A stretch of DNA of 64,000 bases, taken from NCBI GenBank assembly GCA_035485275.1, contig DATHOE010000037.1, forward strand, positions 8,701 through 72,700. The letters are read 5' to 3'. The first letter of the stretch is position 1, and each line of letters opens with the position of its first letter. A program made the translations under genes and the position numbers. This document shows, in pieces, positions 1-23,485 of this stretch. The notes beneath the pieces are model-generated. The model was not told the origin of the DNA. It did not search any database and saw only the letters and a list, made by a program, of their open reading frames with translations. Source of the stretch: a bacterium. Lineage in GTDB: Bacteria; Oederibacteriota; JAJYGY01; DAIDJD01.

Positions 1-88
1 CCCCAAGCCGACCCAGTTCATGCAGAAGATGTTCGGCTAAGGCCAAGAAGGCCTTTATCAGGGCCGCGTTTGGCCCTATCATGTCCGT

Positions 89-1657: not shown

Positions 1658-2422
1658 GTGAAGGCCCTCCGCCGCAAGCGCGTCAGCATCGTTGCCAGCC
1701 TGCGTTACGGCCTGCGCCTGACCCTGCGCCACATGCATTCCCTGGTGCCTGGGACGGTGGCCTTCTATCTTCCGGAGCTCTTCGCCCGTTACGGTCTGAC
1801 CGCGCCGGGCGGGGAAGTGGCGTCCACGGTGTTCAAGGTCTTGGTGGGCTGCTGGCTGCTCTGGCACGCCCTGAAGCTGAGCGACCGTGAGACGCGCTCC
1901 AGCCGCTTCCACGAACCCGTGCTTCCGGCCCCCGGCTATCTCGGGCGTTTCCTAGGATCGACCCTTCTGTTCTGGGGCGTGCTGGGCCTGACCCTTTGGC
2001 CCGCCTGGCGCCTGGCCTCGGGCACCTGGGGGGCGGACCCCGGAGCGGCGGCCTGGCTGTATCGCCCCTGGTTGTGGACCGGACCCCAAGCCTTGACCGC
2101 GGCCTGGCTGGCCCTGGCGTCCCTGCCCGCCGGGTTGTGGACGGTCTACGGCTGGTTCCACGGCTATTACGTGGCCGACGAAGGCCAGGGGCCCTGGGAA
2201 TCCATGCGCAGCAGCTTCAAGGCCGTGCGGGGGGCCTTCTGGCCCTGCGTGCTGTTCCTGGGGGTGATCGCGGTGGTGAACGCGCTCGGCCTGGCCCTGT
2301 GGGTGGTGGGCGTGTTCTTCGCGTTCCCGGTGACCCTGATGGCGACGACCTACGTGCATTTGGAATTGAAGCGCCAGACCCCGGAATTGAAAAAAGCGGG
2401 GCCAGGGAAGCCCAAGCGTTAG
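1658..2422 (+). CDS. Hypothetical polytopic membrane protein
   Basis: Several hydrophobic helices (WLLWHAL, LLFWGVLGLTLWPAW, VLFLGVIAVVNALGLALWVVGVFFAF). GTG 1658 is the first in-frame start after the upstream stop; the start is uncertain. Confidence 0.45.
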   Translation: MKALRRKRVSIVASLRYGLRLTLRHMHSLVPGTVAFYLPELFARYGLTAPGGEVASTVFKVLVGCWLLWHALKLSDRETRSSRFHEPVLPAPGYLGRFLGSTLLFWGVLGLTLWPAWRLASGTWGADPGAAAWLYRPWLWTGPQALTAAWLALASLPAGLWTVYGWFHGYYVADEGQGPWESMRSSFKAVRGAFWPCVLFLGVIAVVNALGLALWVVGVFFAFPVTLMATTYVHLELKRQTPELKKAGPGKPKR

Positions 2423-15998: not shown

Positions 15999-18343
15999 AC
16001 CAAGGAACTGGATCTTCGCGGATTTTGGAATCGATTTCGGCGCTTGATCCGGTGTGCGGCATGAGCGTGGACGTGGCATCGCCCAAGGGCGGGAGCCACG
16101 TCCACGCCGGCCGGACCTATTATTTTTGCAGCGACCATTGCCGCGTCCAATTCGCGGCAGATCCGATCGGTTATTTGGACGGCACGCTTCCTGAAAGCTC
16201 CGATCCCGATGCCATATACACCTGCCCTATGGACCCCGAGATCGAACAAAAGGGGCCCGGTTCCTGTCCGATCTGCGGCATGGCCCTGGAACCCAAGGAT
16301 CCGGCGAGCGTCGACGGAGGGGCCACGCTGAAGGCCGCCCGCAGCCGTTTTCTGCTCAGCGCCCTGTTGGCCGCGCCCCTTGCCGGCCTGGTGATGACGC
16401 AGGAATGGACGGGCTGGCACTGGCCGGCCAGCCCATACGGACGACTGCTTCAGGCCGCCTTGGCCCTTCCGGTGGTGGCTTGGGCGGGCGCTCCCGTTTT
16501 TTCAAAGGCCGCCACCAGCCTCCGTACCCGCAAACTCAACATGTACACCCTCATCGGGCTGGGAACGGGTATGGCCTTGCTTTATAGCCTGGCGGCCCTG
16601 GCGATTCCGGGCGCTTTTCCCTCCGCGTTTTGGCGGCGAGGCCCGGACGGTCCCCAACTGCCCATGTATTTCGAGGCCGCGGCCGTGATCACGGCCCTGG
16701 TCTTGTTGGGGGAATGGCTGGAGCTGCGCGCACGGGGCCAAACCTCCCAGGCTCTCAAAGCCTTGTTGGACCTTCAGGCCCGCACGGCTCGGCGCCTGGA
16801 AGCGGACGGTTCCGAGAGCGAGGTCGACCTCGCTTTGGTTCGGCCGGGCGAGCGTCTGCGCGTGCGTCCCGGAGAGACCGTTCCCGTGGATGGGGAGGTC
16901 TTGGAGGGCCTAAGCTGGGTGGATGAGAGCCGGATGTCCGGCGAGAGCGAGCCGCTGGCCAAGGAGGCCGGGGACGAGGTGCTTGGAGGCACCCTCAACG
17001 GGCAGGGAAGCTTCGTCATGGAGGCCCGCCGGGTGGGCAGGGACAGCCTGCTGGGCCGCATCGTGGCCCAGGTGGCCGAAGCCCAACGCAGCCGCGCGCC
17101 CATCCAAAGGTCGGTGGACCGCGTTTCGGCCGTCTTTGTGCCGGCGGTGGTGGCTTGCGCGGCTGCCAGTTTCATGGTCTGGGCTTTGTGGGGGCCTGAG
17201 CCGCGCCTGGCCATGGCCCTGCTCAACGCCGTGACCGTGCTCATCGTGGCCTGCCCCTGCGCCCTTGGACTGGCCACGCCGATGAGCGTCATGGTGGGCA
17301 TGGGGCGGGCGGCCCAGATGGGGGTATTGTTCCGCGATGCCGAGGCCTTGCAGGCACTGGGAACCGTGGACGTCCTTTGCCTGGACAAAACCGGCACCCT
17401 CACAGAAGGCCGGCCGGCCCTGACTGCCGTTGTAGCTGGGGAAGGCTTGTCCGAAGCGGAATTGCTGGCCCTGGCGGCTGGTTTGGAGCGCCACAGCGAA
17501 CATCCCCTGGCCCGGGCGGTGCTGGAAGCGGCCCAGATGCGCGGATTGTCGCCCCGGCCCTGCGAAGGCTTTTTGTCCGTCGCCGGCCAGGGTGTGGAGG
17601 GGAAAGTGCCGGGCCTGAGCGGAGGCGAAAACCTGGCCGGGGAAGGCCGTTTGCGTATAGGAACCGCCGCCTTCTGCGGTATTAGTGATTTTGCCTGGCT
17701 GGAACGCGCTGAGAGCCTGCGCGCGGAGGGGGCCACGGTCTTTTTCGTGGAACTAGAGGGGCGCACGCTGGGTTTGCTTGCGGTCGCAGATCCGGTCCGC
17801 GCCACGGCCCAGGAGGCCCTGTCCAGGCTCCAAGAGGCTGGATTGCGTTTGATCGTTCTCAGCGGCGACGCTGAAGGCACGGTAAAGGCCGTGGGCAGGC
17901 GAATGGGCCTGACGGAATTGAAGGCCGGGCTTTCTCCCCTTGATAAGGCCGAAGCCGTGCGGAGCCTGCAGTCCGAGGGTTGCCGGGTTGCCATGGCGGG
18001 TGATGGAGTCAACGACGCTCCGGCTTTGGCTGCAGCAACCGTGGGCATCGCCATGGGCACCGGGACGGATGCGGCTAAACTGAGCGCCGGTGTTACCCTC
18101 ATTCGCCCCGACCTAAGGGGCATTCTGAGAGCCCGGTCCTTGTCGAGGGCTGTGCTGCGCAATATCAGCCAGAACCTGTGGTGGGCCTTGCTCTACAACT
18201 CCCTGGGCGTGCCCATCGCGGCCGGCTTGCTTTATCCGTTCACGGGGATGCTGCTCAGTCCTATGTATGCGGCAGCGGCCATGAGCTTGAGTTCATTGTG
18301 TGTCGTGGGCAACGCGCTGAGGCTGAGGCGCTTTGAGAATTGA
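15995..18343 (+). CDS. copA: Copper-translocating P1B-type ATPase with N-terminal TRASH/YHS metal-binding domain
   Basis: Motifs DPVCGM (TRASH/YHS), CPICGM, CPC (ACPCALGLATP), DKTGT, GDGVNDAP. TTG start overlaps the VOC stop (TTGA). Confidence 0.9.
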   Translation: MNQGTGSSRILESISALDPVCGMSVDVASPKGGSHVHAGRTYYFCSDHCRVQFAADPIGYLDGTLPESSDPDAIYTCPMDPEIEQKGPGSCPICGMALEPKDPASVDGGATLKAARSRFLLSALLAAPLAGLVMTQEWTGWHWPASPYGRLLQAALALPVVAWAGAPVFSKAATSLRTRKLNMYTLIGLGTGMALLYSLAALAIPGAFPSAFWRRGPDGPQLPMYFEAAAVITALVLLGEWLELRARGQTSQALKALLDLQARTARRLEADGSESEVDLALVRPGERLRVRPGETVPVDGEVLEGLSWVDESRMSGESEPLAKEAGDEVLGGTLNGQGSFVMEARRVGRDSLLGRIVAQVAEAQRSRAPIQRSVDRVSAVFVPAVVACAAASFMVWALWGPEPRLAMALLNAVTVLIVACPCALGLATPMSVMVGMGRAAQMGVLFRDAEALQALGTVDVLCLDKTGTLTEGRPALTAVVAGEGLSEAELLALAAGLERHSEHPLARAVLEAAQMRGLSPRPCEGFLSVAGQGVEGKVPGLSGGENLAGEGRLRIGTAAFCGISDFAWLERAESLRAEGATVFFVELEGRTLGLLAVADPVRATAQEALSRLQEAGLRLIVLSGDAEGTVKAVGRRMGLTELKAGLSPLDKAEAVRSLQSEGCRVAMAGDGVNDAPALAAATVGIAMGTGTDAAKLSAGVTLIRPDLRGILRARSLSRAVLRNISQNLWWALLYNSLGVPIAAGLLYPFTGMLLSPMYAAAAMSLSSLCVVGNALRLRRFEN

Positions 18344-18393
18344 AGCTGTTCGATGTTTCCCGCCGTCCTATTCACACAAAAATTTAGAAACGA

Positions 18394-18415
18394 CCTATTT
18401 TTTTAAAAAAATAGG
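18394..18415. repeat. Perfect 22-bp AT palindrome CCTATTTTTTTAAAAAAATAGG
   Basis: Lies between the converging copA (+) and XRE (-) genes, at the left edge of the low-GC island. Confidence 0.5.
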
Positions 18416-18474
18416 GAGTTCGGGTGTATGGAAGGGAACAAGATTTAATACCAGGCAAGAAAGATTGATGGGAC

Positions 18475-18786
18475 TCAGAGGTCCTGCCAGGTTTGGATGA
18501 AGTCAGGCTTCTGTCCCAGGAGCCTAATTAGGCGGCTTGCCACCCCATCAGGACGACGGACACCGCGTTCCCAGGCCGTGACACTGTGGGAGCTCACACC
18601 AACCAGATCCGCGAAGCGCGCCTGGGACACGTTCATGCCCTTGCGCGTAGCCTTGACCTCAGCGGGGCTGGCGGGGAGGCGGTCAGATGCGGATTTTCCT
18701 CTGGCCACAACTTGGCTCATTGCGGCGATTGGGCCTGATTCATTTCCTGTAATGGTGGCGGCTTCTTTCATGCTTAGCTTTGGCAT
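18475..18786 (-). CDS. XRE-family HTH protein (HigA/antitoxin-like), orphan
   Basis: C-terminal HTH MNVSQARFADLVGVSSHSVTAWERG. Strong RBS AGGAGG. No partner toxin ORF is detectable upstream. Confidence 0.6.
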   Translation of the reverse strand: MPKLSMKEAATITGNESGPIAAMSQVVARGKSASDRLPASPAEVKATRKGMNVSQARFADLVGVSSHSVTAWERGVRRPDGVASRLIRLLGQKPDFIQTWQDL

Positions 18787-19040
18787 GGCATCCTCCTGTC
18801 AGGTACAGTGTTGAATCTAAGGCTCTCCTATTTTGAGCAAAAGTTGTGCTATAATTTCAGACTAACGTTTTTCTTATAGATAAAATAGCATAATAACAGG
18901 TCATATTATACATAAAACAGAGTCAATAGTTATACTTTGTATATATAAATGTACAAAAATTATAATTATGTATAAATTATATATATTTATAGTGCATACA
19001 AAAAACGAACTAAATTTTTTGGACTGTTTCGTTCGAAACA

Positions 19041-19142
19041 ATGCCCTCGAAAAGGTCAAAGTTAACAGAGGGGCAGATCACCGACGTGCTCAAGCAAGCC
19101 CAAACTGTTATTCTTGCGGTCGAGACAATTCGCAAGTTTTGA
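19041..19142 (+). pseudogene. Relic of IS3-family transposase OrfA N-terminus (33 codons)
   Basis: MPSKRSKLTEGQITDVLKQAQ... resembles IS3/IS407 OrfA N-termini (MPRKRYSAEQIIAKLREAE...). Truncated by an in-frame stop. Sits in AT-rich DNA downstream of an extended -10 (TGcTATAAT at ~18846). Confidence 0.3.
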
Positions 19143-19436
19143 ATGAGCAAGATGACGCTTTGCGAGAATGCTCGGGGGTATATTTGGGTGGTTTCCGGGC
19201 ACTCTTTTTGGCGGGCTTGGTTGTCTTGAACTTTGACTTTTTGGTCAGGCCAGCCGGGGTTTTTCACCCATTGCCCCACGGTCACCGGACGGCCTTTCTG
19301 CGCTTCGTAGAAGGCCATTCGGGTCCCCTTTAGGTCGCCTTCGCCCTTGAGCATCGCTTTTAATTGTTAACGTTAAACATGACAACTTTCGCAAGTCAAT
19401 TTTCAATCGATACAGTCAATGTGCTGTTATGGCGTC

Positions 19437-19474
19437 GAGAGCAAAAGGGCGTAGGACTAAAATTCTTACGCCCC
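19437..19474 (-). terminator. Intrinsic terminator of the low-GC two-gene operon
   Basis: On the minus strand, GGGCGTAAGAATTTTAGTCCTACGCCC followed by TTTTGCTCTC, immediately after the 19502 stop. Confidence 0.55.
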
Positions 19475-19501
19475 GTAGTTAGATTTATGAGCCGGGAAAT
19501 T

Positions 19502-20299
19502 TTAAAACGTCGTCGAAAGTAGTGTAATGTGTGGCTCGAGATTTTGAGCAAAATTCACTTGGGGAATTTGCCAAGATACCTGTTTGTCTTCAATGTGTAT
19601 TAATCCTGAGTCGTCCATTGTTCTCCGGTTACGATTTTTTCCAATGTGCCATAAGATTAAACCAGTAATTCCGTCGGCAGCTCCGAGGGAAGCAATGAGA
19701 ATGCCATAATCCTCCAAGTTCGCACCATTTGCTTCATTGGTCGCATCTGTATCAGCCGCAATATAGTTGCCGTCGCTTAAGTCAGTGCTATAAGAATCAG
19801 CTGCGCTCTGATAACTGTTAATTCCAGAGCCCGCCATAATTACTCCGCCAACAGTTGCAGCTAATCCAGTCCAAAACATGATCCTACCAGTTGAGACCAT
19901 TCCTGAATTTGGTAATGTGTTTTCATTATTTATTATTTCGTAATTTTTTTGATATTTTTTATGATGATAATTTTTTTTAATAATTTCAGAATCATAGGAA
20001 TCATCAGGATCATCGGTATAGTCTTTGAGAGATATACGTTTTCCTTCAGAATCAAATACCTTTTCAATTTTTGTCATGGAAATTTCCTTAATATCGCCAT
20101 TGGGGGATTTCAACGTCACGCCTGTAAGATCAATGCCAATCAAGATTCCAGTTATACCCCCTCCGTCATTTACCAATATCACAGTGACGGATTGGTTTGC
20201 TAATCCATCAGCGGTCAAGTTAAGTGATAGAATAAATGCCAGAATAAAAAAGCAAGCAAACAAAAAATTACTTTGTTTTTTGACTAGTTCTATATTCAT
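19502..20299 (-). CDS. Hypothetical membrane protein (signal/TM1 + two C-terminal TM helices), low GC
   Basis: About 35% GC. N-terminal hydrophobic segment FLFACFFILAFILSL and TM segments GRIMFWTGLAATVGGVIMAG and GILIASLGAADGITGLILW. No recognisable domain. Confidence 0.5.
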   Translation of the reverse strand: MNIELVKKQSNFLFACFFILAFILSLNLTADGLANQSVTVILVNDGGGITGILIGIDLTGVTLKSPNGDIKEISMTKIEKVFDSEGKRISLKDYTDDPDDSYDSEIIKKNYHHKKYQKNYEIINNENTLPNSGMVSTGRIMFWTGLAATVGGVIMAGSGINSYQSAADSYSTDLSDGNYIAADTDATNEANGANLEDYGILIASLGAADGITGLILWHIGKNRNRRTMDDSGLIHIEDKQVSWQIPQVNFAQNLEPHITLLSTTF

Positions 20300-20367
20300 A
20301 GTATTCCTTAAGTTGGAGTATTATTGATGAATCTATTTCGTATTTTTATATTTGTATTCCTGCTAGG

Positions 20368-20823
20368 TTAATCAATCCAATAACCGTAACCATTCCCAAT
20401 ACAGCCAAAATGCAATTCGTTGCAACACGATGAAGATGCAGACGAAGAACTTATGACAGCTGCAGTGGAATAATTGCAGCCATTTAATGTTACTGTATGA
20501 GCATAATTAGATGCATAAGGGCCAACCGCATATGCGGTTCCACCAGAAAGTGTAATTGGAATGCCGCTATCAACTTGAAATACTACAGAGGTGCAGTCTG
20601 ACGCATTTTGAATTAAAAACCAATTTCCCGAAGTTGGAAACGTGTTAAGAAATACATTACTGAAGTTTGCCGAACAAGATTGAGATACAGGCGTTGGGTT
20701 GCTGTTGGGGTTAAAAGGATTGTTGGCATGGTTACAGCTGAGACAGAAACCTACAACTATGAAAATTAGATAGTAAAAAAATGCGGGGGATTCCACCTGT
20801 TCTAGCACAATTTTTTTCCGCAT
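20368..20823 (-). CDS. Hypothetical Cys-rich secreted/lipoprotein-like protein, low GC
   Basis: Signal peptide FFYYLIFIVVGFCLSC. Mature part carries ~9 Cys and is Ser/Asn/Thr-rich. Co-oriented with 19502..20299 and 68 nt upstream of it. Confidence 0.45.
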   Translation of the reverse strand: MRKKIVLEQVESPAFFYYLIFIVVGFCLSCNHANNPFNPNSNPTPVSQSCSANFSNVFLNTFPTSGNWFLIQNASDCTSVVFQVDSGIPITLSGGTAYAVGPYASNYAHTVTLNGCNYSTAAVISSSSASSSCCNELHFGCIGNGYGYWID

Positions 20824-20924
20824 TGCCCAGTCACCCCCAAGCTTCGAGAACCAAAAGTTTTGAAAAGTATATCAAATACGTATTTGTGGGTCAAAATTAA
20901 AGTGAGGCAGTGACTAGGATGGTC

Positions 20925-20952
20925 TTGACATGCTCATCATATATGATGTAAT
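20925..20952 (+). promoter_or_regulatory. Sigma70-like promoter (TTGACA-16-TGTAAT) with embedded 14-bp perfect palindrome CATCATATATGATG
   Basis: -35 at 20925-30, -10 at 20947-52. The palindrome at 20935-48 overlaps the spacer and -10, as a classic autoregulatory toxin-antitoxin operator would. RBS GGGGGA 5 nt before ATG 20967. Confidence 0.6.
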
Positions 20953-20966
20953 TTATTGGGGGATCG

Positions 20967-21278
20967 ATGCAAAGACGTTACGATACATCCGAAAGCCAGA
21001 GAATGGTGAATACCATCCTCACTGGTCAGGAATGGGATTCGCTGGACATCCAACTTACTTGTATCGACCGAGGTTTGGGAATGTTCGGTCGAAGGGATAT
21101 CCGCATCGAGGCCGCGAAGAGAACGATCATAATTACGGTCTATGTTTCTTCGCAGCTTGATGCGATCTATGTCTTGGGCTATCACCTAGAAAGGAAAGGT
21201 GAGCCGACTGACAACCAGAGGATGCGAATTGTCGAGTATATTGCTGAGATTCAGGCCCTTGAAAAAAATAGGAGCTGA
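20967..21278 (+). CDS. Type II toxin, Gp49/HigB-like (RelE/ParE superfamily)
   Basis: ~100 aa, with ..RTIIITVYV..AIYVLGYHLERKGEPTD..RIVEYIAEI resembling the Gp49/HigB pattern (..IILLHGFiKKtqKTP..eie.A). Immediately followed by an XRE antitoxin gene. Confidence 0.55.
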   Translation: MQRRYDTSESQRMVNTILTGQEWDSLDIQLTCIDRGLGMFGRRDIRIEAAKRTIIITVYVSSQLDAIYVLGYHLERKGEPTDNQRMRIVEYIAEIQALEKNRS

Positions 21279-21279
21279 C

Positions 21280-21633
21280 ATGAAGACCTCTGTTTTGGAA
21301 AGGGAACATAAAGGTGCAAGCAAGCTGGCGCCCAGCATCTTCGATCCCAGTTGGCAAGGAACAGATGAAGATACTCTGTTTAAAAAAAATAGGCCTGATC
21401 TATTTGGACAGAAGAAAAAACCAAGTGAAAAGCATCGACTGGCCCGACAACTCTTTACGTTACGCAAGGCCGCTGGACTTTCCCAAGGCCAGATAGCCAA
21501 GAGGGCGGGCATAGGATCAGCCACTTATCAACGTATTGAGGAGTGTCAGCCGGTGGCCAATCCCGGCCTGGATATTCTTGTTAAGCTGGCCCGCGCTTTT
21601 GGCGTCGACATTCAAAGTCTTTTCCCCAAATAG
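21280..21633 (+). CDS. XRE-family HTH antitoxin (HigA-like)
   Basis: HTH LRKAAGLSQGQIAKRAGIGSATYQRIEEC. Starts 2 nt after the toxin stop. Confidence 0.65.
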   Translation: MKTSVLEREHKGASKLAPSIFDPSWQGTDEDTLFKKNRPDLFGQKKKPSEKHRLARQLFTLRKAAGLSQGQIAKRAGIGSATYQRIEECQPVANPGLDILVKLARAFGVDIQSLFPK

Positions 21634-21786
21634 ATCTTTTGACGCTCTATGGTTTTCGTAGATTCTTGCTGGATTGAGACACTTCAGGCAAAGTCCGGCT
21701 AATGTTCAGAATGTAGGGAATAAAGGCATCCAGAGGTACATTCTATAGTGAGATTTCATACGCATGAGAGCCGGAGGTATGCATTC

Positions 21787-21963
21787 ATGAAGAAAAAGCC
21801 CTTTAAAGTGCTTCAATGGGCCCTGTTCCTGGTAGGACTCTCTGTCATCTGTGCCGGATGTTTCTGGGGCTACGGAGGCCGTGGCTATCATGACGGTCGC
21901 GGTGGTTGGAGAGGCGATGGAGACAGAGGCGGTTACGGACACGATGGCGGTTACGGCCGTTAG
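21787..21963 (+). CDS. Small secreted Gly/Arg/Tyr/Asp-rich peptide (58 aa)
   Basis: MKKKPFKVLQWALFLVGLSVICAGC signal peptide, then the low-complexity stretch FWGYGGRGYHDGRGGWRGDGDRGGYGHDGGYGR. RBS GGAGG upstream and its own terminator downstream. Confidence 0.4.
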   Translation: MKKKPFKVLQWALFLVGLSVICAGCFWGYGGRGYHDGRGGWRGDGDRGGYGHDGGYGR

Positions 21964-21973
21964 GGCCGTCGTT

Positions 21974-22020
21974 AAACCGGGTCATGCGTCCGTCCCTTGG
22001 GAAGCATGACTCGGTTTTTA
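21974..22020 (+). terminator. Intrinsic terminator
   Basis: AAACCGGGTCATGC...GCATGACTCGGTTT stem (one G-U pair) followed by TTTTT. Confidence 0.6.
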
Positions 22021-22144
22021 GCGACCCTGGGGGGCCGCTGTACGCCTCCCTTTTTTCCATTACTTAGTTAACCTCGTCTTAACGATTTTTTCCGCGTCTT
22101 TTGGTACCATCAATCCCTTTGATGCCCTAAGACCCAGGATAGCC

Positions 22145-23485
22145 ATGCCCCCCGTTTTTAAAGCTCCTAAACTCCCTTTGGCCGTTCTGTGCCTGTTCTT
22201 GTCCGCCCCAGTGGGACTGGCGGCTGATACCGCCATTGCCGCCCCGTCCGACGCGTGGTGGTCTGCCCACGGCCAGACCACCGCCATCGCGCAATACCAT
22301 CCCCCCTTTTACGCCCGATACAGCGGCGCCAACAGCCTCGGCGACGGGAATCAATTCGATCCGTCTTTCACCGTCACACTTTTCCTTGGCGCCCGGATTA
22401 TGCCGGGCTTGGAAGCATATCTAGATCCGGAATTGAGCGCAGGCAGCGGGTTCAGCGGCACAACGGGCCTGGCGGACTTTCCCAATGGTGAGATCTCCAA
22501 GGTGGGTTCCCCACGCCCAGCGGTCAAGGTCGCCCGCGCATACCTTCAGTGGGAGCTCGGCTTTGGGGGTCCCACGGAGACCCTTGCGAGCGCGGCCAAC
22601 CAGGTTCCAGAGACCAGGGACCTGTCCCGTCTGACGCTTTTGGCGGGGAAGTTCAGCCTTTCTGATTTTTTTGACGTCAATTCCTATGCCCAGGACGCGC
22701 GCAGCCAGTTCCTGAACACGGGACTGATCGATAACGGCGCCTGGGACTTCGCGGCGGACACCTTCGGCTACACGGACGGCCTCTATGCGGAGCTGAATCA
22801 GCGGGCCTGGGCCCTGCGTTTCGCCGAGGTTCAGGAGCCGGCGGTTGCCAATGGCGCTGTGCTGGACAGCGACCTGGAGCACGCCCATTCCGAAAATCTC
22901 GAAGCGGAGGGGCGTTGGTGGGCATGGACGCATCCCGGTAAGTTGCGTTTTTTGACCTTCTGGAACCGGGCCGACATGGGTAACTACCGCGTGAGCCTGG
23001 CCGCGCCTGCCTCGGACGGGGTCAACATCCACGATTCCGAGGTGCCCGGTACCCTTAAGTACGGATTCGGCCTGAATTTGGAACAGGAGATCACGGCCAG
23101 CCTGGGCCTGTTTTCGCGAGTGGGATGGAACAACGGCCAGACCGAAACTTGGGCTTTCATGGAAATCGACCAGGACGCAAGCGTCGGGTGTCAGTTGCAA
23201 GGCGACGCATGGGGCAGGCCCCAGGACCATTGCGGCCTGGCCTACGTGATCAGCGGACTGTCCGCGCCCCATTTGGAGTACCTGGCCGCTGGAGGCTACG
23301 GTTTCATCATAGGAGACGGGGCTTTGGACTACGCCCCGGAACAGGTCATTGAGACCTACTATTCCTGGTGCCCGGTGGATGGTCTGACTCTAAGCCCGGA
23401 TTACCAGTTTTTTGACCATCCTGCCTACAACCAGGCACGTGGACCTGTGGACGTATTTTCGTTGAGAATTCACTACGAACTTTGA
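22145..23485 (+). CDS. Carbohydrate-selective porin, OprB family
   Basis: Signal peptide. OprB-like features (..AQYHPPFYARYSGANSL.., ..QWELGFGGP.., C-terminal ..RIHYEL). Confidence 0.75.
   Translation: MPPVFKAPKLPLAVLCLFLSAPVGLAADTAIAAPSDAWWSAHGQTTAIAQYHPPFYARYSGANSLGDGNQFDPSFTVTLFLGARIMPGLEAYLDPELSAGSGFSGTTGLADFPNGEISKVGSPRPAVKVARAYLQWELGFGGPTETLASAANQVPETRDLSRLTLLAGKFSLSDFFDVNSYAQDARSQFLNTGLIDNGAWDFAADTFGYTDGLYAELNQRAWALRFAEVQEPAVANGAVLDSDLEHAHSENLEAEGRWWAWTHPGKLRFLTFWNRADMGNYRVSLAAPASDGVNIHDSEVPGTLKYGFGLNLEQEITASLGLFSRVGWNNGQTETWAFMEIDQDASVGCQLQGDAWGRPQDHCGLAYVISGLSAPHLEYLAAGGYGFIIGDGALDYAPEQVIETYYSWCPVDGLTLSPDYQFFDHPAYNQARGPVDVFSLRIHYEL

Follow-up and report, generated by a model that had tools for sequence, protein, structure and literature searches.

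Two adjoining genes of low GC content, lying in an otherwise GC-rich bacterial contig and coding for a cysteine-rich exported protein (A) and a membrane protein (B), raise the question of whether they are genuine genes, whether they belong together and what their products might do. The DNA considered is a stretch of 64,000 nucleotides, hereafter the window, taken from a metagenome-assembled genome. The first-pass annotation had described the gene pair and proposed that it could be an effector/immunity or abortive-infection system. The observation was confirmed, and the interpretation was partly supported.

Composition, surroundings and conservation of the gene pair

Gene A (20368..20823, minus strand; 151 aa, an ORF with one homolog, P0004) and gene B (19502..20299, minus strand; 265 aa, an ORF with two homologs) are adjacent and co-oriented in the ORF list, with 68 nt between them; these coordinates agree exactly with the lengths, orientation and spacing first described. 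Both lie in a mosaic islet of low GC content (18344..22100, no strand assigned) made up of small accessory genes of mixed GC. The islet is limited by a gene for a CopA-like copper ATPase, which ends at 18343, and by a gene for an OprB-like porin, which starts at 22145. The genes neighbouring the islet code for CopA, MsrA, a glyoxalase, OprB and a dehydrogenase, and the host is taken to be diderm because the OprB porin gene adjoins the islet. Across the islet, GC drops from ~0.65 to 0.25–0.52 and comes back up near 21800–22100. Gene A has 39.9% GC and gene B 37.6%, versus 57–71% in the remainder of the 64-kb window; the low GC reported earlier is thus correct, although its figure of ~35% was slightly below the actual values. 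GC3 is 0.33 in both genes, versus 0.76 in the CopA gene and 0.72 in the OprB gene. No prophage or phage gene and no integrase was found near the module or in the related loci, the Rfam search gave no match in 17.5–22.5 kb, and the scan with the flanking porin gene found no island-free relative.

Divergent from A/B, on the plus strand, are ORF103 (20967-21278) and the gene for an XRE-type HTH protein (21280-21633; HTH_3 match, E 3.8e-11), which display a toxin–antitoxin (TA)-like layout with ORF103 as the putative toxin. No match to ORF103 was found in any profile library searched or in PDB sequences. On the minus strand, at 18475..18786, there is a NadS/MqsA-family HTH antitoxin-like gene of host-like GC (0.60), which matched TIGR03830 (E 2.6e-10) and NadS (E 2.6e-9), both under the curated cut-offs. 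TA or HTH genes adjoin the module in all three loci known (the window, L004 and L007). The adjacent toxin–antitoxin module of the first-pass annotation is therefore in agreement with the layout and with the recurrence of such genes, but its putative toxin has no family match.

Concerning the homologous loci, the arrangement of L004 is that of the window, with homologs of both A and B, at ~42% identity each, and with order and orientation kept, while L007 carries B (51–55% identical) without A; B is followed there by a gene of 274 aa that has no relationship to A. An exhaustive search of 1.84 billion representatives yielded a single other homolog of A (P0004: 42% identity, equal length, E 1.5e-18), and it adjoins a B homolog. 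Scans of genomes, metagenomes, viruses, phages and plasmids added no further locus, and no copy of A/B turned up in the collections of phages, plasmids and viruses that were searched. In all pairs of A and of B homologs pN was lower than pS (0.41 versus 0.76 for A and its homolog), and dN/dS was ~0.26 for the closest B pair. So, A and B are genuine conserved genes. Their composition is foreign, the module being a low-GC outlier in all three loci: in L004 the GC3 of A/B is 0.47–0.48 versus 0.77 in the neighbouring VapB-like gene, and in L007 B has 36% GC versus 63% in the flank. The recurrence of both homologs in the independent locus L004, with order and orientation unchanged, bears out that A and B are a real unit, and their similar divergence fits inheritance as one unit. 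The homologs are not only scattered singletons, but the conservation of the pairing is incomplete: since B occurs without A in L007, A and B are often but not always paired and, with three loci known, an obligatory A–B complex is not established.

The expression signals were also considered. A sigma-70-like promoter is predicted upstream of gene A (20866..20894, minus strand), with TTGACC, a 17-nt spacer, TATACT and an extended −10 TG. It agrees with 10 of the 12 consensus positions, the best score in the region, as a consensus match only, and would work as a promoter of the module. The A–B spacer (20300..20367, minus strand, 68 nt) contains a ribosome-binding site, AAGGAA, 6 nt before the start codon of B; the minus-strand scan reported neither a terminator-like nor a promoter-like site in it, and A and B would be co-transcribed. 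At 27 nt after the stop codon of B there is a hairpin, GGGGCGUA...UACGCCCU, followed by U's (19442..19474, minus strand). Its RNA fold has an 8-pair stem at 19446-19474 (seven Watson–Crick pairs and one G–U) and four U, and the DNA fold gives the same stem. What had been called a clean intrinsic terminator is more modest than that: the stem and the U's are there, but the pattern scan for terminators did not call the hairpin, and the 86-nt stretch around it folds no better than shuffles. A modest intrinsic terminator is plausible.

Two other features of these regions deserve mention. A motif of ~20 nt, AAAAA[CT]TGAC.CAA.AGTT, is common to the L007 element and the window (19/22 and 18/20 matches); the test with dinucleotide shuffles gave 0/1000 and 5/1000, among 44 comparisons, and the motif may be explained simply by an A-tract together with a −35 hexamer. 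In L007, ~100-nt repeats bracket B. An integron cassette was considered, taking as the attC criterion an imperfect long hairpin with R''/R' (RYYYAAC / GTTRRRY) at the 3' end of the cassette and intI nearby, and was rejected: the L007 repeats and the window region downstream of B fold no better than shuffles (z >= 0 on either strand), the window has no flanking repeats, and there is no integrase among the genes in and around the islet.

Predicted architecture of the two proteins

Protein A starts with a signal peptide (residues 1–30) that ends in a lipobox-like CLSC, continues with a tether rich in Pro, Asn and Ser (residues 31–49) and ends with a domain of ~100 aa (residues 50–151) with six conserved Cys (C50, C77, C116, C133/134, C141). 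The signal peptide proposed earlier was thus recovered, and an export signal was found in B as well. The total number of Cys in A is eight, one fewer than the approximate nine first counted; the six conserved ones are in the mature part. The lipobox was assayed with the PROSITE PS51257-type pattern {DERK}(6)-[LIVMFWSTAG](2)-[LIVMFYSTAGCQ]-[AGS]-C. P0004 agrees with the strict pattern (AASC at C21) and contains also a classical LSGC at C25, whereas the A protein of the window deviates from it (Cys at −3) and agrees with the relaxed pattern (CLSC at C30). Also conserved is a CC/CGC-x-ELH motif (C-x0-1-C-x-ELH). It seems reasonable to interpret that A would be exported through its lipoprotein-type signal and tethered to a membrane by the flexible Pro/Asn-rich linker, most likely, as position +2 is occupied by a residue other than Asp, to the outer membrane, and that its ~100-aa domain is probably beta-rich and probably held by three disulfides.

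The AF2 model of A was all-beta, of low confidence (pLDDT 51.4, pTM 0.44). Structural relatives sought with it by Foldseek against the PDB were rejected as noise (best E 0.11, TM-scores <=0.26). Protein A gave no reportable match in Pfam, NCBIfam or PADLOC, and one match at noise level in PHROGs, to a family of unknown function (E 0.24). An Ig-like or adhesin nature, suggested by a weak phmmer match (E 6e-4) to a 1283-aa cadherin/Big_9 repeat protein, was discarded with an hhalign probability of 0.6%. The resemblance of A to a disulfide-rich toxin or adhesin found no support, there being no family match, and a lipoprotein-like protein would be tethered to a membrane, not freely released as a toxin. 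Gene A appears to be absent from the NCBI and Logan gene calls, two gene callers having skipped it, and its annotation is warranted in view of this apparent absence.

Protein B starts with a Sec-type signal peptide (residues 1–30; 20210..20299, minus strand), with a basic n-region, an h-region of 15–17 aa and the cleavage sequence LTA|DG. The three B homologs contain SPase-I-type (−3,−1) sites at the same aligned position (LTA|DG, LAA|DD and LIS|DD). Since this N-terminal hydrophobic segment looks like a cleavable signal peptide, B is better described as a signal peptide plus a two-helix hairpin than as the three-TM protein of the first-pass annotation.

The signal peptide is followed by a predicted small SH3/Sm-like beta-barrel domain (residues 31–92; 20024..20209, minus strand), 50% invariant in the three homologs. 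All three matched the NCBIfam model NF047433 (Lepto_7_Nterm), with a best E of 4.9e-5, under the curated cut-off. In the case of the B protein of the window, the score was 16.4 bits (E 0.0057) versus a cut-off of 43 bits for a model of 63 positions, and the match spans residues 37–82 only, the rest of B having no counterpart. We read this as remote domain homology rather than family membership. Further weak matches of the N-domain were to Pfam BPL_C (2.6e-4), LSM and KOW, and to NCBIfam RimP. For window B, no match was obtained in Pfam, PADLOC or PHROGs, the weak NCBIfam match of the N-domain being the sole one in the libraries.

Then comes a variable linker of low complexity (residues 93–132; 19904..20023, minus strand), first acidic (DDPDDSYDSE) and then basic and His-rich (KKNYHHKKYQK), with 10% invariant columns and indels, in which a His cluster is kept in the three homologs. 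It leads to a predicted hydrophobic helix, H1 (residues 133–159; 19823..19903, minus strand; KD hydropathy ~1.5), a variable acidic loop (residues 160–197; 19709..19822, minus strand; 0 K/R and 8 D/E) and a second hydrophobic helix, H2 (residues 198–220; 19640..19708, minus strand), with D/N209 in its middle. Glycines 138/145/152/159 of H1 (G-x6-G three times) are invariant, as are 199/206/213/220 of H2 plus G210; the heptad register was found in 1.0% of composition-matched shuffles for H1 and in 0.2% of shuffles for H2. Two helices with four invariant glycines each, in heptad register, would make a distinctive membrane motif. The C-terminal tail (residues 221–265 plus the stop codon; 19502..19639, minus strand) is conserved, with 48% invariant columns and the consensus DSGLI.IE.K..SW..P..N.AQ...P.ITLLS..F, Phe being the last residue.

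An AF2 model of B obtained from a two-sequence alignment was discarded (pLDDT 31.6), and the profile matches to PDB sequences, among them ZnT8, a viral coat protein and a designed Kelch protein, were insignificant and composition-driven. Hence the fold and sequence checks directed at the identity of the pair, Foldseek having been run on the A model, returned only noise.

From these features, B would be exported by Sec and anchored in a membrane by two antiparallel helices of 22 residues, packed as a hairpin through their glycine stripes, while its SH3/Sm-like domain and its conserved C-terminal tail would lie in the periplasm. In which membrane B sits, and in which orientation, is uncertain because this predicted topology violates the positive-inside rule: with the signal peptide cleaved, the loop that would face the cytoplasm has no K/R and 8–12 acidic residues, while its flanks are basic.

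Possible roles of the pair and rival explanations

The explanation that we prefer, and to which we give about an even chance of being right, is that A/B is a horizontally acquired, largely self-contained accessory module of the cell envelope, the products of which act together there. Once in the periplasm, A and B would form a complex associated with a membrane and alter some property of the envelope; this interaction and the function, like the topology, the lipidation and the disulfides considered above, we infer.

Other explanations have to be weighed against this one. That the islet is non-functional foreign DNA or an assembly artefact, either a chimeric join or a decaying remnant, is hardly credible and largely refuted. 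The origin of the window in a metagenome-assembled genome, the 27-point drop in GC and the omission of gene A by two gene callers would agree with it. However, both islet junctions are reproduced by a Logan contig (L002/L006), which is a second assembly of the same run, SRR7093796; the intact ORFs of A and B are above the 99th percentile (139 aa) of the longest stop-to-stop ORFs in 500 shuffles of the region, one of which gave an ORF of 195 aa; the homologs are under purifying selection, with conserved patterns of Cys, Gly and motifs; and ribosome-binding sites and a promoter-like site are present. It could also be that B alone is the functional unit, A being an independent travelling cassette without interaction with B. 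In favour of this are the L007 locus, with B alone and its own upstream repeat element, the long A–B spacers (68 and 120 nt in the two paired loci) with a ribosome-binding site for each gene, and the character of the regions, which are mosaics of small unrelated genes. Nevertheless, we consider it unlikely, as order, orientation and close spacing are kept at ~42% identity in two different hosts, and the only other A homolog among the 1.84 billion representatives adjoins B.

In an effector/immunity or abortive-infection system, B would be a membrane-permeabilising hairpin that the lipoprotein A neutralises or triggers, and the system would kill competitors or infected cells. Pore formers include Gly-rich helical hairpins with oligomerisation motifs, and the helices of B are glycine-rich with a mid-helix Asp; the TA or HTH genes adjacent in every locus, the foreign composition and the patchy distribution of A/B also point in this direction. 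Against it, there was no toxin, immunity or defence match in PADLOC, Pfam or NCBIfam, nor any match in these libraries or PHROGs beyond the weak N-domain one and noise. Moreover, A and B each have a Sec-type signal, which means that B would enter the envelope of the producer itself; neither immunity proteins nor delivered effectors typically carry a signal of their own such as that of B. There is no secretion-system, delivery or sensor gene near A/B, and the presence of B without A in L007 is awkward for a toxin needing A. So, this proposal of the first-pass annotation is not supported and we take it as distinctly improbable; nothing marks A/B as a toxin system, and we do not think that the pair works in the cytoplasm as toxin and antitoxin, or that it consists of a released toxin and a protein giving immunity to it. 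Periplasmic metal handling, with copper or zinc bound to the Cys-rich A and to the His/Asp-rich B linker, would be in line with the adjoining CopA-type ATPase gene, the nearby MsrA gene, the His cluster kept in the three B linkers and the CC/CGC-x-ELH motif of A. It is nonetheless very unlikely indeed: no metal-related genes occur in L004 or L007, the linker is of low complexity and poorly conserved, the ZnT8 match is insignificant and composition-driven (E 0.18), and the even count of conserved Cys in the exported A fits disulfides equally well.

Returning to the envelope module acquired horizontally, its context suggests, tentatively and with considerable doubt, a barrier or exclusion-type function such as mobile DNA often carries. 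A bolder version is something of a long shot: A/B would be an undescribed, envelope-acting protection system that spreads with TA modules, of a new architecture outside the known defence and exclusion families. In such a system B would form an oligomer of glycine-heptad hairpins, with A, as a tethered and disulfide-rich lipoprotein, acting as its partner or its gate, and the two would keep phage or foreign DNA out of the cell or, when the envelope is attacked, make the membrane collapse. If the inference is true, A/B represents two new envelope protein families, extremely rare as a pair, which move together with TA genes between unrelated bacteria of soil or sediment, and is a possible new example of envelope remodelling by mobile DNA. 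As long as it has no function assigned, the pair counts among a great many orphan pairs of accessory genes, and its immediate impact is modest.

Comparison with known systems

The 'moron' units of phages are defined by foreign GC plus a promoter and a terminator of their own, and often encode TA genes too (PMC3594210). Compared with phage morons such as HK97 gp15 and the lipoprotein-type superinfection-exclusion genes (PMC3594210), A/B shares the sharp GC contrast and likewise has promoter-like and terminator-like elements, as judged from sequence; both code for small envelope proteins, and TA genes are the neighbours of A/B. However, A/B is not inside a phage or prophage and has no match in the phage and viral collections, so that 'moron-like' is to be taken as an analogy only. 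No sequence similarity of A/B to known exclusion proteins was found.

In the Rz/Rz1 spanins and the TraT plus TraS exclusion pairs, a small Cys-containing lipoprotein is encoded beside a membrane-anchored periplasmic protein in mobile DNA. Like them, A is a lipoprotein-type protein with Cys, encoded beside the membrane-anchored B. Unlike them, A/B is without lysis cassette, conjugation genes or sequence similarity, and the gene order differs; in place of the coiled-coil periplasmic domain that i-spanins have besides an N-terminal TM, B has a beta domain and a C-terminal hairpin. A and B had no match to spanins, holins or endolysins of PHROGs, and no lysis genes are nearby.

As for the exported-protein families of Leptospira that have the Lepto_7_Nterm domain (the N-terminal domain of LA_0442/LA_0875), and also the LIC20036 and LIC_13076 families, B resembles them in that the signal peptide runs straight into a beta domain of ~50–60 aa. 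One family member is listed merely as a predicted outer-membrane hypothetical protein (PMC5348505), and nothing on function was found in publications on the Leptospira locus tags.

Finally, what defines the glycine-zipper 2TM family of outer-membrane lipoproteins is the presence of GXXXG repeats, in two short helices, in a polypeptide that also carries the lipid anchor (bioRxiv 10.64898/2025.12.22.696046). Pfam Gly-zipper/Rick_17kDa_Anti gave no match at lax limits, with an E of 1 or less in the case of window B and of 5 or less in that of its two homologs. Like SlyB, YfgH, OsmB and YiaD, B would be exported and anchored by a glycine-rich two-helix hairpin beside a small periplasmic domain and, as with the proteins of that family, would belong to a lipoprotein-associated system, here with the lipoprotein-type protein A. 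Unlike them, B contains a single GxxxG, its glycines being arranged in G-x6-G heptads; its helices are much more hydrophobic, its acidic loop is of 38–44 aa and its signal is of the Sec type, the lipobox-like sequence being on a separate protein, A.

The low-GC gene pair and its signals

Genes A (20368-20823, 151 aa) and B (19502-20299, 265 aa) were read on the minus strand as two co-oriented ORFs spaced by 68 nt, as the first-pass annotation had described them, and its observation of a low-GC two-gene unit was confirmed. GC content is 57-71% across the 64-kb window, with the sole exception of 18.3-22.1 kb, an islet between the genes of the copper ATPase CopA and an OprB-like porin. The GC content of A is 39.9% and that of B 37.6%, and GC3 is 0.33 in both, versus 0.76 in the copper ATPase gene and 0.72 in the OprB-like porin gene. 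Both GC junctions were reproduced in a Logan contig of the same sequencing run (SRR7093796), which argues against a chimeric assembly. When the region was shuffled 500 times, the longest ORF had a 99th percentile of 139 aa, which both genes exceed (195 aa was reached in one shuffle). A is listed from the JGI gene call only, while the Logan calls on the same DNA omit it, and it probably went unannotated in the GenBank MAG record, although a homolog of equal length is conserved. The NCBI accession listed for B is HTB22999.1; none is listed for A.

The region's best match to a sigma-70-type promoter (TTGACC-17 nt-TATACT plus an extended -10 TG; 10/12) lies upstream of A at 20866-20894, and a purine-rich ribosome-binding site can be read before each gene. 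At 19446-19474, 27 nt past the stop codon of B, a hairpin of seven Watson-Crick pairs and one G-U is followed by UUUU. It is plausible as a terminator, but the clean intrinsic terminator announced earlier was not borne out: the site is absent from the pattern-scan calls, and the 86-nt stretch around it folds no better than shuffles.

Recurrence of the pair and its neighbours

In word-indexed searches of 5.8 billion clusters B had a single homolog (P0002) and A had none, while exhaustive phmmer against 1.84 billion representatives gave one true homolog of A (P0004; 151 aa, 42% identity, E 1.5e-18). The locus of the latter, the 2.2-kb contig L004, carries 120 nt downstream and on the same strand a gene for a 271-aa product that shares 42% identity with B (E 4e-57). 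So, the A-B pair recurs with equal divergence of both members and with order and orientation kept. A third B homolog, 51-55% identical depending on the alignment, is carried by contig L001 and by a longer contig, L007 (3.4 kb), reached via cluster look-up. On L007 an RHH/PemK toxin-antitoxin (TA) pair comes before B and an unrelated gene after it, with no A-like sequence anywhere on the contig; pairing thus holds in two of the three loci. Between the window and L001 copies of B, dN is 0.32 and dS 1.25; in all other A and B comparisons dS is saturated, but pS (0.72-0.76) is still about twice pN (0.36-0.41). Selection on both genes is thus purifying.

The module is a compositional outlier in every locus. 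On L004, GC3 is 0.47-0.48 for A and B versus 0.77 for the adjoining VapB-like gene, and on L007 B (36% GC) lies beside a methyltransferase gene fragment of 63% GC and the TA pair of 50-54% GC. TA-type or HTH genes adjoin the module in all three loci. In the window, ORF103 (20967-21278) and an XRE-type HTH gene (21280-21633), adjacent on the plus strand and divergent from A/B, have a toxin-antitoxin layout; since the putative toxin ORF103 matches nothing in Pfam, NCBIfam, PADLOC, PHROGs or PDB sequences, "TA module" describes the layout only, and ORF103 might represent a toxin family not yet described, or might be no toxin at all. Downstream of B lies a NadS/MqsA-family HTH antitoxin-like gene (18475-18786, minus strand) of host-like 60% GC. 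It has no recognisable toxin partner; upstream of it, overlapping palindromes lie in a spacer of 25-30% GC (18800-19010), and a 114-aa ORF (19010-19354, minus strand) could not be assigned. A 57-aa ORF (21790-21963, plus strand) has a lipoprotein-like signal (…LVGLSVICAGC), a Gly/Arg/Asp/Tyr-rich tail and no Pfam match, and is followed by the region's best terminator-like site (22029-22050).

On L004 the pair is flanked by the start of a divergent XRE-type HTH gene (1-67, minus strand; MHPFYKRLGQRLREQRHAKGLT) and, 13 nt past B, by a VapB-like antitoxin gene (1704-1958, plus strand; E 2e-4, just under the Pfam cut-off) that is not directly followed by a VapC gene. The 274-aa low-GC gene after B on L007 (2034-2858, plus strand), with a hydrophobic Cys-containing N-terminus, has no Pfam family, is unrelated to A and is another orphan cassette of the same islet. 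B there lies between two copies of a direct repeat of about 100 nt (926-1030 and 1926-2030). Its core motif, AAAAA[CT]TGAC.CAA.AGTT, occurs twice in the window islet, at 18910-18931 (plus; 19/22 matches) and about 19384-19403 (minus; 18/20), levels that dinucleotide shuffles reached in 0/1000 and 5/1000 trials. One possible explanation is a shared promoter or operator, another a mere A-tract plus -35 hexamer.

Domain organization of A and B

The N-terminus of A is basic and leads into a hydrophobic core ending in CLSC. P0004 has a strict PROSITE-type lipobox and, in addition, a classical LSGC, while the window copy, because of a Cys at -3, passes only the relaxed pattern. A tether rich in Pro, Asn and Ser (about 20 residues) leads to a domain of about 100 aa, in which six Cys and motifs including QNA[ST].C, FQVD.G.PIT and C.ELH..C are common to both sequences. 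AF2 modelling suggests an all-beta fold, though only at pLDDT 51, with which Foldseek found nothing. A weak match to a cadherin-repeat protein failed confirmation, and A belongs to no family in any library searched.

All three B homologs have a basic n-region, an h-region of 15-17 residues and, at the identical aligned position, an SPase-I-type site (LTA|DG, LAA|DD, LIS|DD). Residues 31-92 are 50% invariant and match, in the three homologs, the Leptospira signal-proximal domain model NF047433 (best E 4.9e-5, under the curated cut-off); scattered weak matches to Pfam BPL_C, LSM and KOW and NCBIfam RimP are all to small SH3/Sm-like barrels. An acidic, then basic/His-rich linker follows. Two hydrophobic segments are separated by an acidic loop of 38-44 residues; loop and linker are variable and of low complexity (10-13% invariant columns). 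Each segment has four invariant Gly in exact heptad register (G138/145/152/159 and G199/206/213/220), a register found in 1.0% and 0.2%, respectively, of composition-matched shuffles, and position 209, mid-helix, is D/N. Small residues striped at heptad spacing are a mark of tight, often antiparallel packing along one side of an alpha-helix, so the segments are read as a putative helical hairpin. The beta strands of the AF2 model were given no weight, the model being unusable. The last 45 residues are 48% invariant, ending in ITLLSxxF.

Proposed envelope location and comparison with known systems

Both proteins would leave the cytoplasm. Cleavage of the B signal peptide would leave its conserved N-domain and conserved tail together at the periplasmic face of the hairpin. 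The tethered A domain would lie there too, so the simplest reading is an A-B complex in the periplasm. There is a real inconsistency: the loop has no Lys or Arg and the hairpin flanks are basic, whereas the positive-inside rule predicts the reverse if the hairpin spans the inner membrane with its loop in the cytoplasm. B may thus be an outer-membrane protein that exposes its variable acidic loop, or be inserted otherwise. We give roughly even chances to A/B being a horizontally acquired accessory envelope complex and, within that reading, a low probability to an exclusion or barrier-type role, the preferred specific guess. As to the earlier interpretation, a real, recurrent pair of exported proteins beside TA-type genes stands, while the toxin/immunity or abortive-infection reading found no positive evidence. 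Family-library searches of A and B likewise gave no support for spanins, TA systems or PADLOC defence systems.

Beyond the islet the window has the genes of an ordinary chromosome (cobyrinate-type amidotransferase, MsrA, glyoxalase, CopA, OprB, dehydrogenase). The genes examined in the islet and its surroundings include no integrase; no tRNA, flanking direct repeats or Rfam family was found, nor was the module found in the phage, plasmid and viral collections searched. An integron cassette was excluded, as neither the L007 repeats nor the stretch downstream of B in the window show attC-like folding. Envelope proteins that act in phage exclusion are often encoded by phage "morons". The A/B unit resembles morons formally in its foreign GC, own promoter and hairpin, patchy distribution and TA neighbours, but it differs in having no phage context, so that the comparison (definition from PMC3594210) is an analogy only.

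Of the known systems tested, none fits A/B in every respect. Glycine-zipper 2TM lipoproteins (SlyB/YfgH) by definition combine GXXXG repeats with a lipid anchor in a single chain; B differs from them in its heptads, Sec signal and lack of a Pfam match. Its relation to the Leptospira N-domain is read as remote homology, confined to one domain. The protein families of A and B are new and extremely rare, but a foreign, self-contained accessory envelope cassette is a familiar type of genetic element.
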